Source of the DNA: a virus
Taxonomy: Duplodnaviria; Heunggongvirae; Uroviricota; Caudoviricetes
Virus record (IMG/VR): IMGVR_UViG_2537562231_000028
Length of the DNA: 8,330 bases
Strand: one strand, 5' to 3'
This document shows positions 1 through 8,330 of the stretch, in pieces. The translations under genes and the position numbers were made by a program. Positions within the stretch are counted from its first letter, which is position 1; every line of letters begins with the position of its first letter. A model generated the notes under the pieces. The model was not told the DNA's origin. It did not search any database and saw nothing but the letters and a program-made list of their open reading frames with translations.

Positions 1-1242
1 ATGGCGAGAAAAACACACCCATTAACCACAGTGCAGATCAAAGCAGCCAGACCAGCGCAAAAGGAGTACACCCTGCAGGACGGCGGAGGGCTTTTTCTCC
101 TGGTCAAACCGTCTGGATCAAAACTCTGGAGATTTTCCTACTACCGACCATCGGACAAAAAAAGAATATTGCTGAGTTTTGGATCGCTTGAAGATGTTTC
201 CCTGGCTGATGTCAGAAAACGCCGTAGCGAGTACAGGACGTTAATCAGTGCCGGAACTGACCCGCAGGACCACGAGAGGCAAAAAAGAGAGACAGAGGCC
301 CGAAGACAAGGGAACACGTTCGAAAATGTGGCGGCGGCATGGTACCAGGTGAAAATCAGCCAGAATCTGGCCCCCAACACGATTAAAGACATCTGGCGTT
401 CGCTGGATAAATATGTATTCCCGTTCATCGGCAACACGCCAATAGATACCCTCACCGCCCGAAGGTTCGTTGAAGTGCTTACCCCCATCAAGGAGCGCGG
501 CAACCTGGAAACACTCAAGCGGGTTTTACAGCGCGTTAATGAGGTAATGGATTACGCCGCCAACAGTGGGCTGATTGATGCCAATCCGGCTATGAATGTG
601 CGTAAGGCGTTTCCCTCACCTGTAAAAAAACATATGCCAACAATCCGCCCCGAACAGCTGCCGGAGCTTATGCAGGCTTTATCAGTATCGGCAACAGAAC
701 GGCAGACCAGATTACTGATTGAATGGCAGTTACTGACCGTAACCCGTCCCGCCGAAGCGTCATCAACGCGGTGGGATGAAATCAACCTGGACGCGAAGCA
801 ATGGACGATACCTGCCGGACGTATGAAGATGCGCAGGGATCACGTTATCCCGCTTTCCGGTCAGGCTATGGCGGTGCTGGAGGCCATGAAACCAATCAGC
901 CACCACCGCAATTACGTTTTCCCAAGTCTGAAAGACCCACAGCAGCCGATGAACAGCCAGACAGCTAACGCAGCATTGCGGCGTATGGGATTCGCTGGCG
1001 TGCTGGTGTCTCATGGATTACGCGCCATATTCAGCACAGCAGCGAACGAGGAAGGATTCGAGCCGGACGTAATAGAGGCGGCACTTGCCCACGTCGACAC
1101 CAACGAAGTTAGACGGGCATACAACCGGAGCAACTACATAGAAAAACGCATCGTGCTGATGCGCTGGTGGGGCGAATTTGTCGAGGCTGCGGCGACGGGC
1201 GTAACCCTCGCCAGTGGTAAAAGGGGTATCCGAGCCGTGTAG
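1..1242 (+). CDS. int: Tyrosine site-specific integrase, P4-type (N-terminal arm-binding domain plus C-terminal catalytic domain)
   Basis: 413 aa ORF. N-terminus LTTVQIKAARPAQKEYTLQDGGGLFLLVKPSGSKLWRFSYY matches the arm-DNA-binding domain typical of P4-like integrases. C-terminus carries HGLRAIFST and RAYNRSNY, consistent with the His-x-x-Arg and Tyr nucleophile motifs. ATG at position 1, so the att site or tRNA target would lie upstream, outside the window. Confidence 0.93.
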   Translation: MARKTHPLTTVQIKAARPAQKEYTLQDGGGLFLLVKPSGSKLWRFSYYRPSDKKRILLSFGSLEDVSLADVRKRRSEYRTLISAGTDPQDHERQKRETEARRQGNTFENVAAAWYQVKISQNLAPNTIKDIWRSLDKYVFPFIGNTPIDTLTARRFVEVLTPIKERGNLETLKRVLQRVNEVMDYAANSGLIDANPAMNVRKAFPSPVKKHMPTIRPEQLPELMQALSVSATERQTRLLIEWQLLTVTRPAEASSTRWDEINLDAKQWTIPAGRMKMRRDHVIPLSGQAMAVLEAMKPISHHRNYVFPSLKDPQQPMNSQTANAALRRMGFAGVLVSHGLRAIFSTAANEEGFEPDVIEAALAHVDTNEVRRAYNRSNYIEKRIVLMRWWGEFVEAAATGVTLASGKRGIRAV

Positions 1243-1738: not shown

Positions 1739-1945
1739 ATGGAAGCAATCAGAAAAATTATCTTTCGCCAGGAAGTAAAAAAAATTATCCACATCAAGGC
1801 AGACAGCACGCTGCAAAGCATGATCAACGCCGGAGAATTTCCGCAAGGTTTTCGCGTTGGTTTACGCCGTCGCGGATGGTATGAGGATGATGTGTTGGCC
1901 TGGCAGAAAGAACGCGAACAGGAAGCACGCGGAACGGCTGCTTAA
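1739..1945 (+). CDS. alpA: AlpA/Vis-family DNA-binding protein (phage transcriptional regulator or excisionase-like, MerR-type HTH)
   Basis: 68 aa. FRQEVKKIIHIKADSTLQSMINAGEFPQGFRVGLRRRGWYEDDVLAWQ fits the AlpA family pattern (HTH, then G-FP, then a conserved Trp). AAGGT lies 9 nt upstream of the ATG. Position next to int is typical. Confidence 0.8.
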   Translation: MEAIRKIIFRQEVKKIIHIKADSTLQSMINAGEFPQGFRVGLRRRGWYEDDVLAWQKEREQEARGTAA

Positions 1946-2327: not shown

Positions 2328-2507
2328 TTACTCCTGCTCTTTGGCCTTGCGGCGCTGGCGGCGTTTGATTTCGCCTTTAACGGCAGTAACTATAAATTGC
2401 GCTTTGCTTTCACCTTCATCTAAATTTTTTTCTAAGTCTGCAACAACATCATGCGGGAATCTGGCATTTAACTGTTGCGACTTATTATTTGTTGAACCTG
2501 TTGCCAT
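2328..2507 (-). CDS. Small ribbon-helix-helix-like DNA-binding protein (59 aa), candidate satellite repressor or autoregulator
   Basis: Internal ATG at 2505-2507 (minus strand) preceded by GAGAGGA with about 7 nt spacing; stop TAA at 2328-2330. MATGSTNNKSQQLNARFPHDVVADLEKNLDEGESKAQFIVTAVKGEIKRRQRRKAKEQE reads as beta strand (QLNARFP), helix, loop, helix, then a basic tail. The N-terminal extension from the TTG at 2672 has no RBS and looks like non-protein sequence. RHH fold is inferred by eye. Confidence 0.55.
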   Translation of the reverse strand: MATGSTNNKSQQLNARFPHDVVADLEKNLDEGESKAQFIVTAVKGEIKRRQRRKAKEQE

Positions 2508-2690
2508 TACTGAATCCTCTCTAAGTTGGTGCGATTCAGTATACACAAAAAAATTCAGAGAAAAAGGCTTGAAGTGCGATTCACTTGCTGATAGGTTAAA
2601 AACAGATGGTGCGATGCACCAAATAACAACGCCCCGCAGTGCGGGAACACATACGGGGCGTCTAACCAACAACGTAAACTAGGAGCCGTT
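2508..2690. promoter_or_regulatory. Divergent control region between the RHH gene and the rightward operon
   Basis: GTGCGATTCA at 2529-2538 and 2574-2583, variant GTGCGATGCA at 2609-2618. On the minus strand a TATACT -10-like hexamer sits directly upstream of the first repeat copy. GC-rich dyad CGCCCCG ... CGGGGCG (2630-2660) with an inner CCCGCA-G-TGCGGG palindrome and no downstream T-run. Confidence 0.5.
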
Positions 2691-2888
2691 ATGGTTGCCG
2701 TAAATCATATACCACACCTTGTACACACACAAACGGCCTTTGTGTGGCGTTTTCTGGCCCTGAGTGCCGGAGAATCTCAAATCATCCACGTAACCGCCTG
2801 GACGGAACGCGAAGCGCGTAGCCGTTGCCCGTCCGGTTGTGTTGCTGTATTCGCCGCCCGTATTCGTCAGGGGGTGTGCCATGCTTAA
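2691..2888 (+). CDS. Small protein (65 aa), possibly Icd-like (host cell division inhibitor family seen in P4-like elements); tentative
   Basis: AGGAG at 2681-2685, 5 nt before the ATG. VWRFLALSAGESQIIHVTAWTEREARSRC...VAVFAARI resembles, from memory, the W-F-A ... TE-EAR ... FAAR pattern of Icd-like proteins. No alignment was possible. Confidence 0.5.
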   Translation: MVAVNHIPHLVHTQTAFVWRFLALSAGESQIIHVTAWTEREARSRCPSGCVAVFAARIRQGVCHA

Positions 2889-3066
2889 AACCTTCCGTGT
2901 ATTTGCCAGCGCTGTTAACCCACTAGGCCACACAATTGGTATCGCTCAGAATGTGAAGGCTGTTAATGTTCAGACGGCTATTGCTGCGGTGAGAAGCGAA
3001 TCATCAGAATATGGCTTATCACAAGTCATTATTTCAGCAGTGTATGAATTAAAAGAGGTGCATTAA
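2881..3066 (+). CDS. Hypothetical small protein (61 aa), possible distant paralog of the upstream gene
   Basis: ATG 2881 preceded by AGGGGG with about 8 nt spacing and overlapping the upstream stop (ATGCTTAA). MLKTFRVFASAVNPLGHTIGIAQNVKAVNVQTAIAAVRSE loosely echoes the upstream F-R/W-F-A ... A-x-TE/Q pattern. Confidence 0.45.
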   Translation: MLKTFRVFASAVNPLGHTIGIAQNVKAVNVQTAIAAVRSESSEYGLSQVIISAVYELKEVH

Positions 3067-3257
3067 TGAAGGAAATTACATTACACGAAGCCGCTGAACG
3101 TGCGCACCAGACAGAAATTATTTGCCGCCTTCTTGAGGTATACCCTGATAAATTAAATGATGGTGATATATCCGCATTAGCTGGCCTTCTGGCAAAACTG
3201 TCAGGAAGTGTTGCGCTGTGGTTAATTGATGAGAGAGCCGAACGCTATGAAAAATAA
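3066..3257 (+). CDS. Hypothetical small protein (63 aa) in an AT-rich cassette
   Basis: ATG overlaps the upstream stop (TAATG); AAAGAGGTG upstream. About 43% GC by hand count against about 56% for the gene upstream. No family recognised. Confidence 0.5.
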   Translation: MKEITLHEAAERAHQTEIICRLLEVYPDKLNDGDISALAGLLAKLSGSVALWLIDERAERYEK

Positions 3258-3489
3258 TAAACTGGCGACCAGTGAATTAAGAAGCCTTGCCAACAGCGCA
3301 ATATCTTTAAACAACGCAGCAAACGAAGTAATGAATATGTGGCTTCAGTCGCTGGTGAATAATGAACGCAATGAATCAACTGCAAGATTAATATTAGCCG
3401 TTTCTGAATTACTGGATAGTTCAACCAGCAAAATAGAGAGCATATCAGAGAAGATTAACGGCTTATCAGGTCACGCTATCGGGGAATAA
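3247..3489 (+). CDS. Hypothetical Asn/Ser-rich small protein (80 aa; alternative ATG at 3229) in an AT-rich cassette
   Basis: ATG 3247 lies just before the upstream stop (3255-3257). About 39% GC by hand count. Sequence rich in N, S, L, E and likely helical. No family recognised. Confidence 0.45.
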   Translation: MKNNKLATSELRSLANSAISLNNAANEVMNMWLQSLVNNERNESTARLILAVSELLDSSTSKIESISEKINGLSGHAIGE

Positions 3490-3494
3490 AAATA

Positions 3495-3794
3495 ATGAAA
3501 CTTAAATATCCTGGCTTAACTGACAGCGGCAAAACTCGCACTAAATTCATGCGCGGGGATATTTACCGCGACCAGTACGGCGGCACGGTAATGATTAAGG
3601 GCGTGGAGGAACGGCGCGTAACCTACCATCGTGAAGGCTACGAATATGATTGCGTGATGCCTGTTTATCAGTTCCGGCGTGATTTTTCTCTGGTACAGGC
3701 AGCGCCCCGCAGTAAACCAACCAGCAGGGAGAAAGCACGCGCCAATATTCAGGAAATAAAAAAGATGCTTAACGTATTCAGGGGTAAAAAATGA
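3495..3794 (+). CDS. Hypothetical protein (99 aa) translationally coupled to the primase gene
   Basis: ATG 3495 follows the upstream stop by 5 nt. Its stop overlaps the primase start (ATGA at 3791-3794). Basic C-terminal tail. No family recognised. Confidence 0.5.
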   Translation: MKLKYPGLTDSGKTRTKFMRGDIYRDQYGGTVMIKGVEERRVTYHREGYEYDCVMPVYQFRRDFSLVQAAPRSKPTSREKARANIQEIKKMLNVFRGKK

Positions 3795-5545
3795 AACTGG
3801 CACCGAACGTAAAAAAACAGCCACGCGGAATAAAACACAAAGACACAGAGGTGATTATTTTCGCGGGTAGTGATGCGTGGGCACATGCAAAACAGTGGCA
3901 GGAGCAGGACGGCCCCGCATCCGGCGATAATGTGCCTCCTGTGTGGCTTGGGGAGCAGCAGTTATCAGAACTGGATAAGCTGCAAATTGTGCCGGAAGGC
4001 AGAAAATCCGTGCGCATATTCAGGGCCGGACATCTTGCACCAGTAATGATCAAGGCGATTGGTCAAAAGCTGGCGGCGGCTGGTGTACAGGATGCAAATT
4101 TTTATCCTGAGGGTATGCACGGCAAGGAGGTGCAGAACTGGCGCGAATACCTGGCCCGTGAACGCCAGAATCTTTCTGATGGTCTGGTCATTGAGCTTCC
4201 GGTAAAGCAAAAGGCGCAACTTTCGCAGATGGCGGACAGTGAGCGCGCGCAGCTGCTTGCCGATCGCTTTGATGGCGTTTGCGTACATCCTGAAAGTGAA
4301 ATTGTTCACGTATGGCGCGGCGGGGTATGGTGTCCGGTCAGCACAATGGAACTTAGCCGCGAAATGGTGGCGATCTATTCAGAGCACAGGGCCACTTTCA
4401 GCAAGCGCGTAATCAATAACGCCGTGGAAGCGTTAAAAGTTATTGCCGAACCAATGGGCGAGCCGTCCGGCGATTTGCTGCCGTTCGCCAATGGTGCGCT
4501 TGACCTGAAAACGGGGGAATTTTCCCCGCACACGCCGGAGAACTGGATCACCACGCACAACGGCATTGAGTACACGCCACCAGCACCAGGGGAGAATATC
4601 CGCGACAACGCGCCAAACTTTCATAAATGGCTTGAGCACGCAGCCGGAAAAGACCCGCGCAAGATGATGCGTATATGTGCCGCGCTGTACATGATTATGG
4701 CGAACCGGTACGACTGGCAGATGTTTATTGAGGCCACCGGAGACGGCGGGAGCGGTAAAAGTACATTCACACACATAGCCAGCCTTCTGGCAGGGAAACA
4801 GAACACGGTAAGCGCTGAAATGACATCGCTTGATGATGCTGGTGGACGTGCGCAGGTTGTCGGGAGTCGTCTTATCGTCCTGGCTGACCAGCCGAAATAT
4901 ACAGGCGAAGGAACGGGCATCAAGAAAATCACGGGCGGCGACCCCGTGGAAATTAACCCGAAATATGAAAAGCGTTTCACGGCGGTAATCAGGGCGGTGG
5001 TGCTGGCGACCAACAACAACCCGATGATATTCACCGAACGGGCCGGAGGTGTGGCACGTCGTCGCGTGATTTTCCGTTTCGACAATATTGTTAGTGAGGC
5101 CGAAAAAGACAGGGAGCTACCGGAAAAAATTGCGGCTGAAATCCCCGTCATTATCCGCCGCTTGCTGGCGAACTTTACCGACCCTGAAAAGGCACGGGCT
5201 TTACTCATTGAGCAGCGTGACGGTGATGAAGCTCTGGCAATAAAGCAACAGACGGATCCGGTTATTGAGTTTTGCCAGTTCCTGAATTTTCTGGAGGAAG
5301 CGCGCGGCCTGATGATGGGGGGCGGTGGCGATTCAGTGAAGTACACGACCAGGAACAGCCTTTACCGCGTCTATCTGGCGTTTATGGCATACGCAGGCAG
5401 GAGCAAACCGCTAAACGTGGCTGAGTTCAGCAAGGCCATGAAGCCAGCGGCGAAAGTTTACGGGCATGAATATATTACGCGAAAAGTTAAGGGAGTAACG
5501 CAGACCAACGCAATTACAACAGACGATTGCGACGCGTTTTTATAA
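3791..5545 (+). CDS. Satellite replication protein: primase/helicase with a D5-like (SF3-type) P-loop NTPase domain
   Basis: 584 aa. Walker A GDGGSGKST; downstream hydrophobic strand plus acidic residue (RLIVLADQP) consistent with Walker B. GGGG 6 nt before the ATG. Position immediately upstream of an iteron cluster matches Pri-Rep of PICIs and alpha of P4. Confidence 0.88.
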   Translation: MKLAPNVKKQPRGIKHKDTEVIIFAGSDAWAHAKQWQEQDGPASGDNVPPVWLGEQQLSELDKLQIVPEGRKSVRIFRAGHLAPVMIKAIGQKLAAAGVQDANFYPEGMHGKEVQNWREYLARERQNLSDGLVIELPVKQKAQLSQMADSERAQLLADRFDGVCVHPESEIVHVWRGGVWCPVSTMELSREMVAIYSEHRATFSKRVINNAVEALKVIAEPMGEPSGDLLPFANGALDLKTGEFSPHTPENWITTHNGIEYTPPAPGENIRDNAPNFHKWLEHAAGKDPRKMMRICAALYMIMANRYDWQMFIEATGDGGSGKSTFTHIASLLAGKQNTVSAEMTSLDDAGGRAQVVGSRLIVLADQPKYTGEGTGIKKITGGDPVEINPKYEKRFTAVIRAVVLATNNNPMIFTERAGGVARRRVIFRFDNIVSEAEKDRELPEKIAAEIPVIIRRLLANFTDPEKARALLIEQRDGDEALAIKQQTDPVIEFCQFLNFLEEARGLMMGGGGDSVKYTTRNSLYRVYLAFMAYAGRSKPLNVAEFSKAMKPAAKVYGHEYITRKVKGVTQTNAITTDDCDAFL

Positions 5546-5553
5546 TTTTTTGT

Positions 5554-5790
5554 AAAAGCCCTCTACCCCATCTACCTGAATGAAATAAACGCATATTATT
5601 CAACATGATAAGTGGGTAGAGGGCCAGGTAGAAGGCTAATAAAAGCTCTCTACCTCTTCTACCTGATTTTATCAGTTTCAGGTAGCAGGGTAGACGGCAG
5701 GTAGAGGAGCCCAAAAAGCTATCTACCCGCTGAAAGCCGCGCCATTACTGACATGATGAGCATTCGGGTAGATGGGTAGAGGGGGGGAGG
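5554..5790. repeat. Iteron-type replication origin: three modules of forward TCTACC-type repeats paired with inverted GGTAGA-type repeats
   Basis: Forward blocks 5554-5578 (AAAAGCCCTCTACCCCATCTACCTG), 5641-5666, 5714-5728. Inverted blocks 5613-5635, 5679-5709, 5765-5787. AT-rich spacers between them (for example 5579-5612). Directly downstream of the primase/helicase stop. Confidence 0.7.
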
Positions 5791-7255: not shown

Positions 7256-7417
7256 ATGAGCGAATACATCACAGACCCTATTGATGTACTCACGGAAATC
7301 ATGAACGACAAGCAGCAGTCGACCGAAATACGGTTACAGGCCGCCGCTGTTCTGATGCCATATTTTCACGAAACACTAAACCCGTGCTTCCAGGAGGAGG
7401 AAGAAGATGATCTGTAA
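7256..7417 (+). CDS. Hypothetical small acidic-tailed protein (53 aa); absent from the supplied ORF track
   Basis: ATG 7256 lies 11 nt after the terS stop, with GAGGT upstream. Hand translation: MSEYITDPIDVLTEIMNDKQQSTEIRLQAAAVLMPYFHETLNPCFQEEEEDDL. Its 3' end overlaps the start of the capsid gene. Confidence 0.4.
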   Translation: MSEYITDPIDVLTEIMNDKQQSTEIRLQAAAVLMPYFHETLNPCFQEEEEDDL

Positions 7418-8330
7418 AAACATGAAAGGCGTGTCAGCAGTTCGCGCCGCCAGCGTGCTGGCATCGTGTAAATTTAGCCATGCTGACGCTATAGAGATGA
7501 CGAAAAGAAATGATCCGGCAGTATCGTTATTTCTTGAAAAATCCGTAGTAGCAGGAATGAACACGGATAACATGCCGTCGCTGGTGGCAGAGCCGATAGT
7601 AAGAGAGCTTGGCGAGTATATTTTTTCGCAGTCTGTACCAGGCAAGCTAATCAGCAGCGCGCTAAATCTTCCTTTTGGCGCAAAATTGCAGTCAATATCA
7701 GGCAAGGGCAGTAAATGGCTTAAAGAAGCCGAAGAAATCCCTGTCAAAGAGGGAGAAGTAAACGAAAGTGCGCTAAAACTGTGCAAACTTGGCGCTATTG
7801 TGATGCTGAATAACGAGCTAATCAAATTTAGCACCCCTGGTACAAATTCAGCGATCAGAGACTTGATCACATCGGAATCGGTGAAAGAAATAGATAAAAA
7901 ATTTCTTTCCAGTGACCAGGAGGTGGCTGGCGTATCCCCTGAGGGCGTGCTTAATGGTGCTGATGAGGCCGAAAACTTCATAGAGCTTTTCAAAAAGCAC
8001 ATAGCGAACGGTAACACGCTTTCCACGTCGTCGCTAATCTTGCCCGTAGAAAACGCCTTACAGCTTACTGATGCTGAGTTCTGGCAGATAGAGCTTTTGA
8101 GAATACCGGTAATTGTGAGCGAACAGGCGGATCGCATGATGCTGATAGACGCTCAAAAGCTGATTATTAACGTTGAAGCCACGGTTATAACCCCAACTGA
8201 TGAGGCGGTAATAAAAACCGAATCAGGGGCGGTTAGCCTTTTCCAGAATGACGCTACAGCGTTCAGGGCAATCACCTATTGCGGATGGCAAAAACTCGAT
8301 AAGGCCGTCACCGTTCTGGCGAAAAGCTGA
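7407..8330 (+). CDS. Putative major capsid protein, HK97-like fold (candidate; no N-terminal delta domain apparent)
   Basis: 307 aa. AGGAGGAGG 6 nt before ATG 7407. KLGAIVMLNNELIKFS ... AIRDLITSESVKEIDKKFLSSDQEVAGVSPEGVLNG resembles the HK97-family pattern of a hydrophobic strand followed by a Gly-rich P-x-G-hh-N-G loop (compare HK97 gp5 LLNGDGTGDNLEGL). Call made by eye. Confidence 0.5.
   Translation: MICKNMKGVSAVRAASVLASCKFSHADAIEMTKRNDPAVSLFLEKSVVAGMNTDNMPSLVAEPIVRELGEYIFSQSVPGKLISSALNLPFGAKLQSISGKGSKWLKEAEEIPVKEGEVNESALKLCKLGAIVMLNNELIKFSTPGTNSAIRDLITSESVKEIDKKFLSSDQEVAGVSPEGVLNGADEAENFIELFKKHIANGNTLSTSSLILPVENALQLTDAEFWQIELLRIPVIVSEQADRMMLIDAQKLIINVEATVITPTDEAVIKTESGAVSLFQNDATAFRAITYCGWQKLDKAVTVLAKS

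Follow-up and report, generated by a model that had tools for sequence, protein, structure and literature searches.

Small AT-rich early genes upstream of rgdR in an Escherichia coli satellite: a mosaic slot with one nearly fixed family

The viral record IMGVR_UViG_2537562231_000028 of IMG/VR (8,330 nucleotides, nt; the window hereafter means this whole stretch) is, judged by its genes, an Escherichia coli satellite of the phage-inducible chromosomal island (PICI) type. Our subject is a pair of overlapping open reading frames (ORFs), orf63 and orf80, named for the number of amino acids (aa) they encode, upstream of the satellite primase gene. A preliminary description of the window had taken them for a compositionally foreign two-gene cassette and a likely site of helper-interference, anti-defence or anti-phage cargo. 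We find an ordinary block of uncharacterised small early genes and not a new system: both ORFs are genuine protein-coding genes, the AT-rich tract comprises three genes, and these occupy a mosaic slot in which the orf80 family is nearly fixed and orf63 is optional. We are highly confident of this anatomy and that the block is not a foreign cassette. The full reading, in which the anatomy is combined with a role for the orf63 and orf80 products, encoded in the early operon, in modulating helper phage or host by protein binding, is in our judgement evenly balanced between right and wrong, and its mode of action, manipulation of helper or host during induction, is offered tentatively.

Much of the setting is already known: the sequences are present in reference genomes and in PHROGs as hypothetical proteins, and the element type, RgdR and the operon frame have been described. 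The main value of the analysis lies in a corrected anatomy, in which the AT-rich genes number three and one is quasi-core. Modest additions are the revised extent of the tract and the occurrence of orf63 as an optional module common to satellites and temperate phages; the orf80 family (F1) is also newly recognised, through sequence comparison, as a fixed-position, hypervariable and uniformly AT-rich gene directly upstream of rgdR in approximately 95% of sampled satellites. Thousands of E. coli genomes carry these genes, those of all O157:H7 reference strains among them, and their neighbour, RgdR, is a characterised regulator of type III secretion.

The AT-rich tract and the gene chain around it

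Both ORFs are present on the plus strand where the preliminary description placed them (Table 1), and exact GC contents bear out its hand-counted values: 42.7% for orf63 (about 43% had been given), 38.7% for orf80 (about 39%) and 53.4% for the primase gene (about 55%). The second protein is indeed rich in asparagine and serine, at 13.8% and 16.2% of residues. The genes just upstream had been credited with about 56% GC, which describes the Icd-like gene (55.1%) but not the adjoining orfB, a gene that was overlooked. Since orfB is as AT-rich as both ORFs (41.9%; GC content at third codon positions, GC3, 0.355), the two-gene boundaries at 3066-3489 were wrong. The dip spans three genes, 2881-3489, with a GC content of 41.5% against 49.2% in the remainder of the window (z = -3.8) and 48.6% in the window as a whole. 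Only 1.5% of 609-nt windows reach a value as low, and the lowest begins near 2913-2998. The sliding-window and codon usage checks that had been proposed therefore show a dip that is real and beyond chance. It is mainly a third-position effect, pooled GC3 being 0.362 in the low-GC genes and 0.543 in the other genes of the window (chi-square p about 1e-6). The rgdR gene, which encodes a DUF4222 protein, is intermediate between the dip and the primase gene at 48.0%, and comparable AT-richness is found elsewhere in the window, for example at 1251-1682.

The three genes lie, as the preliminary description had it, in the operon that precedes the primase gene. The Icd-like gene, orfB, orf63, orf80, rgdR and the primase gene follow one another on the plus strand in a continuous chain from 2691 to 5545, joined by overlaps of 8, 1 and 11 nt, a 5-nt gap between orf80 and rgdR, and a 4-nt overlap between rgdR and the primase gene. 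The orfB/orf63 junction is a TAATG stop-start overlap. A Shine-Dalgarno-like sequence precedes each gene of the chain (GAGGTG for orf63, GAGAG for orf80), and that of rgdR, which starts 5 nt past the orf80 stop, is formed by the last codons of orf80 itself, GGG GAA TAA. Translation of orf80 from its ATG yields 80 aa; an alternative upstream TTG at 3226 would yield 87 aa. Promoter-like sites are at chance level between 1900 and 5900 (5 observed, 5.4 in shuffled sequence), and the single terminator-like site within the two-ORF region, on the minus strand at 3273-3261, has a weak stem of 5 bp. Because of the overlaps and short gaps, the ribosome-binding sequence before each gene and the lack of any excess of promoter-like sites, the six genes look like one translationally coupled operon segment. 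No meaningful repeats were found between 2600 and 3900, and the window has zero matches to Rfam families; hence we see no C4- or cI-like RNA upstream of the Icd-like gene.

Where synonymous sites are unsaturated, pairwise dN/dS lies at 0.23-0.30, with values of 0.27-0.29 for orf63 and 0.23 for orf80, and both proteins match PHROGs at E-values of 1e-35 to 1e-52 over residues 1-62 of 63 (orf63, phrog_1478) and 1-80 of 80 (orf80, phrog_5796; phrog_2196 is a more distant match), the families being without functional annotation. With ratios so far below 1 and such matches, orf63 and orf80 are genuine protein-coding genes under purifying selection. The corresponding ratio for orfB is 0.10-0.23 in two well-sampled comparisons.

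The slot in related satellites

We scanned 5,426 complete E. coli genomes, took 16 annotated loci from the spread of the ranking and clustered their slot genes; 80 further loci were drawn from IMG/VR, anchored on RgdR at at least 80% identity, and counts out of 73 refer to the loci with the Icd-like gene in view. A 1.3-kb query including the flanks matches 1,592-1,860 of the 5,426 genomes, and the two-ORF segment, at 80% coverage or more, only 152. In the 16 annotated loci the slot holds one to four genes, which fall into F1 (the family of orf80, 73-80 aa), F2 (approximately 73 aa, often tandem or fused), F3 (that of orf63), F4 (that of orfB), F5 (106 aa) and three singletons, F6-F8. Across some 90 related satellites its content ranges from zero to five small genes, and about seven families, all AT-rich, supply them. 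The 16 annotated and 82 RgdR-anchored loci show about 20 distinct orders of slot genes and 27 combinations of slot and replicase, the window's own order, F4-F3-F1, being found in 3/73 loci, and identity profiles place the breakpoints of this mosaicism inside genes. On these comparisons the stretch from the Icd-like gene to rgdR is a recombinational mosaic slot.

One family stands out within it. In 69 of the 73 loci F1 is the gene directly upstream of rgdR, irrespective of replicase type (D5_N primase, DUF927 protein or RepA helicase). It is at the same time strongly divergent, with a mean pairwise identity of 0.54 (minimum 0.13) and five subtypes, compared to a mean of 0.86 for RgdR. Hence the earlier expectation of a variable slot between conserved flanks is borne out in that content varies between the Icd-like and DUF4222 genes, and fails in that the orf80 family is fixed. 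The finding that had been named as fatal to the cassette, the same two genes conserved in all related satellites with a known housekeeping role, is seen in part: orf80 is conserved at the family level; orf63 is not, and no housekeeping role is known. F3 is present in 17/73 loci only and occurs also without F1 (locus L015 in our numbering), such that the two genes are not a natural unit.

Base composition gives no better support to a foreign insert. F1 genes have a GC content of 0.36-0.42 in 45/45 distinct copies (GC3 0.354), and the mean values of F2, F3 and F4 are 0.46, 0.46 and 0.45, compared to 0.52 for the Icd-like gene, 0.48 for rgdR and 0.53-0.54 for the replicases. AT-richness is a property of the slot families and not of the window's element; being common to all slot families and to every F1 copy, it is no mark of recent insertion. 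The tract does depart from its flanks in GC and GC3, but it is not a unit of presence and absence with an insert-specific composition, since F1 is nearly fixed, every alternative slot family is AT-rich, and only orf63 and orfB vary in presence.

The variability of F1 is unevenly spread along the protein. The motif W-L-x-x-L-x-[DN]-N-E-R-[DN], at the end of the first predicted helix and in the turn, is kept in most subtypes, as is the predicted hairpin. When the window is compared to an O157 satellite (L003), identity is 58-68% over 3250-3400, which encodes the N-terminal 50 codons of orf80, and 92-100% over 3400-3950, which covers the C-terminal 30 codons, rgdR and the start of the primase gene. 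Positive selection on the divergent N-terminal part receives no support from the one allele pair compared (pN/pS 0.32). This ratio, together with breakpoints that fall within genes, suggests old divergence shuffled by recombination and not detectable positive selection. Codon 42 of the window's orf80 (AAT, 3370-3372) encodes asparagine, where nearly all homologues have aspartate within the N-E-R-D turn motif; D42 is the state in WP_000794515 and in an allele carried by thousands of assemblies (within the assembly collection, the index lists the exact D42 allele in 6,813 blocks), and the N42 allele matched one record, E. coli 3431. Among the matches listed for the D42 allele, genes of 61 and 63 aa precede it in 7/7 cases and a DUF4222 gene follows in 6/7; these seven places are capsid-forming PICIs (cf-PICIs) at two integration sites and with either replicase type.

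The closest counterpart of the block is found in O157:H7. Proteins WP_000659212 and WP_000794515 are encoded in the Icd-to-DUF4222 block of strains EDL933 and Sakai, within the element known variously as O-island 51, CP-933C, Sp7 or EcCIEDL933, the prototype cf-PICI, and mapping of the Sakai annotation confirmed the identity of orfB as ECs_1578 (Z1840). EcCIEDL933 has identical or near-identical genes in the same order, followed by rgdR, the window's orf80 differing by the single residue at position 42. Otherwise the two satellites are unlike: EcCIEDL933 is a 15.4-kb cf-PICI with a DUF927 replicase, whereas the window belongs to a PICI of approximately 8.8 kb at tRNA-Pro with a small terminase (TerS) and a 307-aa capsid-like gene. 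The window is approximately 100% identical to EcCIEDL933 (L002) over 2650-4150, from the Icd-like gene through the first 360 nt or so of the primase gene, and identity collapses on either side of this 1.5-kb module, the right breakpoint lying inside the primase gene at approximately 4150-4200. Near-identity that gives way to divergence within a gene points to recent exchange of the module between two kinds of satellite. The window's rgdR thus sits in a non-O157-type PICI at tRNA-Pro.

The distribution of the orf63 family extends to temperate phages. Seven temperate phages of Klebsiella have homologues, 50% identical across 60 residues. In one of these, KPP5665-2, the homologue gp35 (62 aa; L019 5001-5189) belongs to an operon that runs from a repressor gene to xis and int, and overlaps the gene upstream, annotated as a 'recombination-related exonuclease', by 8 nt. 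It resembles orf63 in its size, its place in an early operon and its overlap with the upstream gene, and is likewise uncharacterised. It differs in being carried by a complete temperate phage, in a leftward operon, where orf63 belongs to a satellite. F3 is therefore an optional module common to satellites and temperate phages. The orf80 protein, by comparison, found no tblastn match in 50,697 phage records.

Other slot families were seen in passing. F2 occurs as tandem pairs of paralogues of approximately 73 aa each (L005, L008, L013) and, in some satellites, as a single fused gene of 154 aa (L007 2965-3429). Satellites with a very divergent DUF4222 gene (approximately 30% identity) carry the 106-aa F5 upstream of it (L014 2752-3072, L016 2535-2855). 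The sequence M-W-H-A-S-E-N-E-E-Y-D-E of F5 is reminiscent of W-L-x-x-L-x-N-N-E-R-D-E in F1, although a distant relationship is unproven: comparison of the two profiles returned a probability of 0.25%, despite aligning a similar W...NE[ER]x[DE] motif. Among F1, F2 and F3, no profile-profile comparison exceeded a probability of 1.7%. A scan of genome contigs with a narrow-pattern DUF4222 alignment recovered two loci, from Shigella and E. albertii.

Possible roles of the slot proteins

The preliminary description recognised no family in either protein, and searches agree. Neither orf63 nor orf80 has a Pfam, NCBIfam or PADLOC match, no PADLOC-DB family was found at E-values up to 1 for the seven small proteins tested, and sequence-profile searches of the PDB with both proteins were empty. 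A word-seeded search of 5.8 billion proteins found relatives in Escherichia and Shigella only, at 66-100% identity. An exhaustive search of 1.84 billion representatives with the orf63 profile gave 69 hits, mostly of 60-90 aa, of which the few with names came from Escherichia, Serratia and Symbiopectobacterium and were every one hypothetical; the orf80 profile gave 720 protein clusters at 90% identity, and 120/120 among the matches listed were E. coli. A search of the literature by locus tags and accessions found no published function for ECs_1578-ECs_1580, with ECs_1579 and ECs_1580 mentioned in gene lists only.

Structure prediction is consistent with small helical proteins. AlphaFold2 models built from shallow alignments suggest a two-helix hairpin in each case, with helices at residues 6-25 and 32-61 of orf63 (mean confidence, pLDDT, 75.8) and at 2-37 and 43-79 of orf80 (pLDDT 81.7). 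Both proteins are acidic (isoelectric points, pI, of 5.0 and 5.3) and, on inspection, neither has a signal peptide or a credible membrane segment; a candidate segment at residues 35-54 of orf63 was rejected, as homologues have K, R or E there. Foldseek matches were generic hairpins, with none at E 0.001 or better: E 1.3 in the PDB for orf63, and 0.17 in the PDB and 0.32 in BFVD for orf80. Hence the remote-homology and single-protein structure searches that the preliminary description called for (PDB, BFVD and profiles) disclosed no relative of known function. The model of orf80 recalls WXG100/Esx proteins, which are two-helix hairpins of approximately 80-100 residues (TM-score 0.77 to the EsxEF chain 4i0x_I). 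However, the match is at E 0.17 or worse, a WXG turn motif and a type VII secretion context are lacking, and the host is Gram-negative; the turn reads N-E-R-[DN], its first motif residue being Asn39 and the tryptophan lying seven residues earlier, and we do not assign orf80 to that family.

Among characterised layouts the nearest is the left operon of satellite P4, in which the genes run vis/ORF88, the cI region, epsilon, ORF151, ORF106 and alpha, epsilon being annotated as a helper derepression protein. ORF106 is cnr, the copy-number regulator. The two operons have in common an AlpA/Vis-type regulator, a run of small genes and an alpha-type primase, and their vis and alpha genes are homologous (19.9 and 354 bits). 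The products in between differ: epsilon, ORF151 and cnr (DUF5375) are without similarity to orfB, orf63, orf80 or RgdR, such that the analogy is positional only. Slot proteins scored 3.7 bits or less against epsilon, ORF151 and cnr in phmmer and hmmsearch comparisons, and RgdR had no match in P4. Since the end genes are homologous and the small genes are not, the operon frame is shared with P4 and the small genes in the middle are non-homologous replacements.

We propose a possible mode of action. On satellite induction, AlpA would switch on the early rightward operon, slot genes included, and the products of orf63 and orf80, as small, acidic, soluble hairpins, would bind other proteins; a single hairpin of 63 or 80 residues, lacking any enzymatic or DNA-binding domain, can hardly do otherwise. 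The likeliest targets would be proteins of the helper phage or the host. The slot products would then be takeover or helper-manipulation factors, comparable to epsilon of the syntenic P4 operon, and not housekeeping factors of the satellite. Helper or host manipulation is favoured by this synteny with epsilon and cnr, by antirepressor-type genes nearby in related satellites (ash, BRO-N, Rha and AntA/B), by the presence of F3 in a phage early-left operon, and by the self-sufficiency of the replicon: in published work, Rep and ori of EcCICFT073 replicate alone, without slot genes, so the latter are not basic replication factors. In strand-specific RNA sequencing of EDL933, Z1840 (orfB) was detected chiefly under the antibiotic treatment that induces prophages (9 reads, a log2 ratio of 5.6); two other conditions gave 4 reads each (PMC4048457). 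Such induction would fit helper-dependent activation by AlpA, which is not to say that it is proof.

Several points weigh against a modulator role. Neither protein has a sequence or structural relative of known function, the best Foldseek values being those above. The transcript evidence covers Z1840 only, at very low read counts. The sampled loci are redundant, mostly E. coli, and anchored on RgdR at 80% identity or more. The divergence of F1 could reflect relaxed constraint and not the tracking of a target, its N-terminal pN/pS not exceeding 1, and the near-universal adjacency of F1 and rgdR fits a role tied to RgdR equally well.

The last point leads to the best of the alternatives, in which orf80 serves RgdR as a dedicated partner, by binding it, chaperoning it, antagonising it or, through coupling, tuning its translation, the pair forming a module that would steer satellite replication or expression and, in enterohaemorrhagic E. 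coli (EHEC), the enterocyte effacement locus (LEE) and motility. RgdR (ECs_1581) is an activator of LEE type III secretion and a repressor of motility in EHEC, with weak, non-specific DNA binding (PMC3378721), and is reportedly encoded by all E. coli PICIs analysed by Fillol-Salom et al. (PMC6092414). The window's RgdR has 99 aa, a pI of 10.1 and an RGD motif at residues 20-22. Partnership would fit the adjacency of F1 to rgdR in 69/73 loci with any type of replicase, the short gap and the ribosome-binding sequence supplied by the end of orf80, and the opposite charge of the two proteins (pI 5.3 and 10.1). Furthermore, the C-terminal third of orf80 lies in the recombination block of rgdR; wherever F1 is missing from the 16 annotated loci, the DUF4222 gene is frameshifted, truncated or very divergent (L012, L015, L014/L016); and lineage-specific divergence immediately upstream of ecs1581 was noted by Flockhart et al. 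(PMC3378721). Yet the three commonest F1 subtypes, which account for 54/58 distinct F1/RgdR pairs, go with one RgdR cluster, with no co-variation beyond linkage, and intact rgdR occurs without F1 in four loci (L018 and L067-L069). Plasmid-borne RgdR alone is active on LEE1 and motility (PMC3378721), and adjacency may be mere linkage. On balance we consider a dedicated RgdR partner unlikely, but not negligibly so.

A more speculative proposal spans the RgdR partnership and the modulation of helper or host. F1 might act as a module that confers specificity on E. coli PICIs: a variable helper or host protein might be recognised, or RgdR gated, by the variable N-terminal helix together with the partly conserved turn. 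We regard this as improbable and mention it for its consequences: the F1 subtype would set which helpers a satellite exploits or resists, and in EHEC might set the strength of the island's input to LEE and motility control. More generally, a hypervariable gene at a fixed position beside replication genes could account for the way in which Gram-negative PICIs are specific to helpers or interfere with them.

The original proposal, that the genes are horizontally acquired defence, anti-defence or helper-interference cargo in a conserved operon, draws on their low GC and GC3, the variable content of the slot between conserved flanks, the small size and acidity of uncharacterised proteins that match a common anti-defence profile, and the sharing of the orf63 family with temperate phages. 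Against it, AT-richness extends to all slot families and every copy of F1, whose position is conserved, and the two genes are not obligate partners. There is no Pfam, NCBIfam or PADLOC match; relatives of anti-defence proteins were likewise absent from Pfam, NCBIfam and the PDB sequence and fold searches, none of which was a dedicated anti-defence library. Hairpins of 63 and 80 aa have no effector domain, and the immune systems of PICIs and cf-PICIs are expected, according to the literature, beside the packaging module. We see no sign of defence or anti-phage cargo at this point, an anti-defence role being still conceivable for orf63, and think the cargo hypothesis somewhat less probable than a partnership with RgdR.

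Alternatively, constraint might act mainly on the DNA, the AT-rich tract being a cis element (a site of H-NS nucleation and silencing, or of transcription pausing) that holds the replication genes off until induction. The tract does lie just upstream of those genes, and F1 keeps its GC at 0.36-0.42 and its GC3 near 0.35 while protein identity drops to 13%. Selection nevertheless acts on the protein, as seen from dN/dS values far below 1, from ORFs that are intact and keep their length, and from a motif kept in most subtypes, and the tract shows no repeats, Rfam matches or excess of promoter-like sites, and a single weak terminator-like stem on the minus strand; a cis element is very unlikely. 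A two-gene toxin-antitoxin or addiction module, suggested by two small, overlapping, co-transcribed ORFs on a mobile element, can be set aside almost entirely, as neither protein matches a toxin or antitoxin domain in Pfam, NCBIfam or PADLOC, both are acidic helical hairpins, most loci carry F1 but no F3, L015 carries F3 but no F1, and the genes lie in the middle of a coupled six-gene chain, not in an autoregulated bicistron.

The element and its other features

Gram-negative PICIs are recognised by a terminal integrase gene, a regulator of the AlpA type, genes that run in one direction, rightward, a pri/rep replicon whose origin has iterons, the absence of lysis and tail genes, a length of approximately 10-15 kb and their own attachment site (PMC6092414, Fillol-Salom et al. 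2018); AlpA is the master regulator that switches on the rightward operon (PMC6092414). The window presents the integrase, alpA and primase genes, the iterons, TerS and the capsid-like gene (Table 1), and so fits this description as far as gene content goes. It matches an E. coli chromosome at 99.8%, as an island of approximately 8.8 kb between tRNA-Pro (beside yejM) and yejO. This island encodes the integrase, an AlpA-type regulator, the YlcI/YnfO gene on the opposite strand, the Icd-like gene, the hypothetical proteins of 61, 63 and 80 aa, the DUF4222 protein, the primase, three more hypothetical proteins, TerS and the 307-aa capsid-like protein.

Table 1. Features of the window, with positions counted from its first nucleotide
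Feature	Position	Strand	Locus tag or accession	Evidence and remarks
int	1-1242			integrase
alpA (Phage_AlpA-type activator)	1739-1945	+		RefSeq: helix-turn-helix regulator; Pfam Phage_AlpA recorded for the equivalent gene of related loci; homologue of P4 vis/ORF88, 19.9 bits
YlcI/YnfO-family gene	2328-2507	-		NF041551, E 1.5e-17; phrog_949
Icd-like gene (65 aa)	2691-2888	+	ECs_1577	NCBIfam NF033153, E 5.8e-18; first gene of the coupled chain
orfB (61 aa, family F4)	2881-3066	+	ECs_1578 / Z1840	phrog_3672, E 9e-46
orf63 (63 aa, family F3)	3066-3257	+	ECs_1579 / WP_000659212	phrog_1478, E 7.6e-35
orf80 (80 aa, family F1)	3247-3489	+	ECs_1580 / Z1841 / WP_000794515 with one substitution	phrog_5796, E 9e-52; phrog_2196, E 5.5e-10
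rgdR (DUF4222, 99 aa)	3495-3794	+	ECs_1581-type	Pfam PF13973, E 2e-23
Primase/replicase gene (584 aa)	3791-5545	+		Pfam D5_N + DUF5906 + Pox_D5; 354 bits against P4 alpha
Probable replication origin	5553-5783			iterons GGGTAGAGGG / CAGGTAGA; repeat families D1, D2, D4, D10; inverted repeats I1-I16
Capsid-like gene (307 aa)	7407-8330 (related chromosome locus L001: 13809-14732)			annotated 'phage major capsid protein'

Directly after the primase stop, copies of GGGTAGAGGG and CAGGTAGA and their complements, in direct and inverted orientation, flank an AT-rich core at approximately 5583-5610. This layout matches the arrangement of PICI origins (PMC6092414), and the iteron region is therefore probably the replication origin of the satellite. 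At the far end, the 307-aa capsid-like gene is the last of the element and the island stops directly after it, before yejO; its counterpart in cf-PICIs has 385 aa. The gene may be the c1499-type capsid-like gene of EcCICFT073 (no phenotype was found for c1499), and the element at tRNA-Pro may be truncated. The YlcI/YnfO gene, between alpA and the Icd-like gene, is the sole leftward gene of the element, and its spot is taken in other satellites by a pseudogenised long Icd-like/ash ORF, a BRO-N gene or a gene for a 247-aa hypothetical protein.

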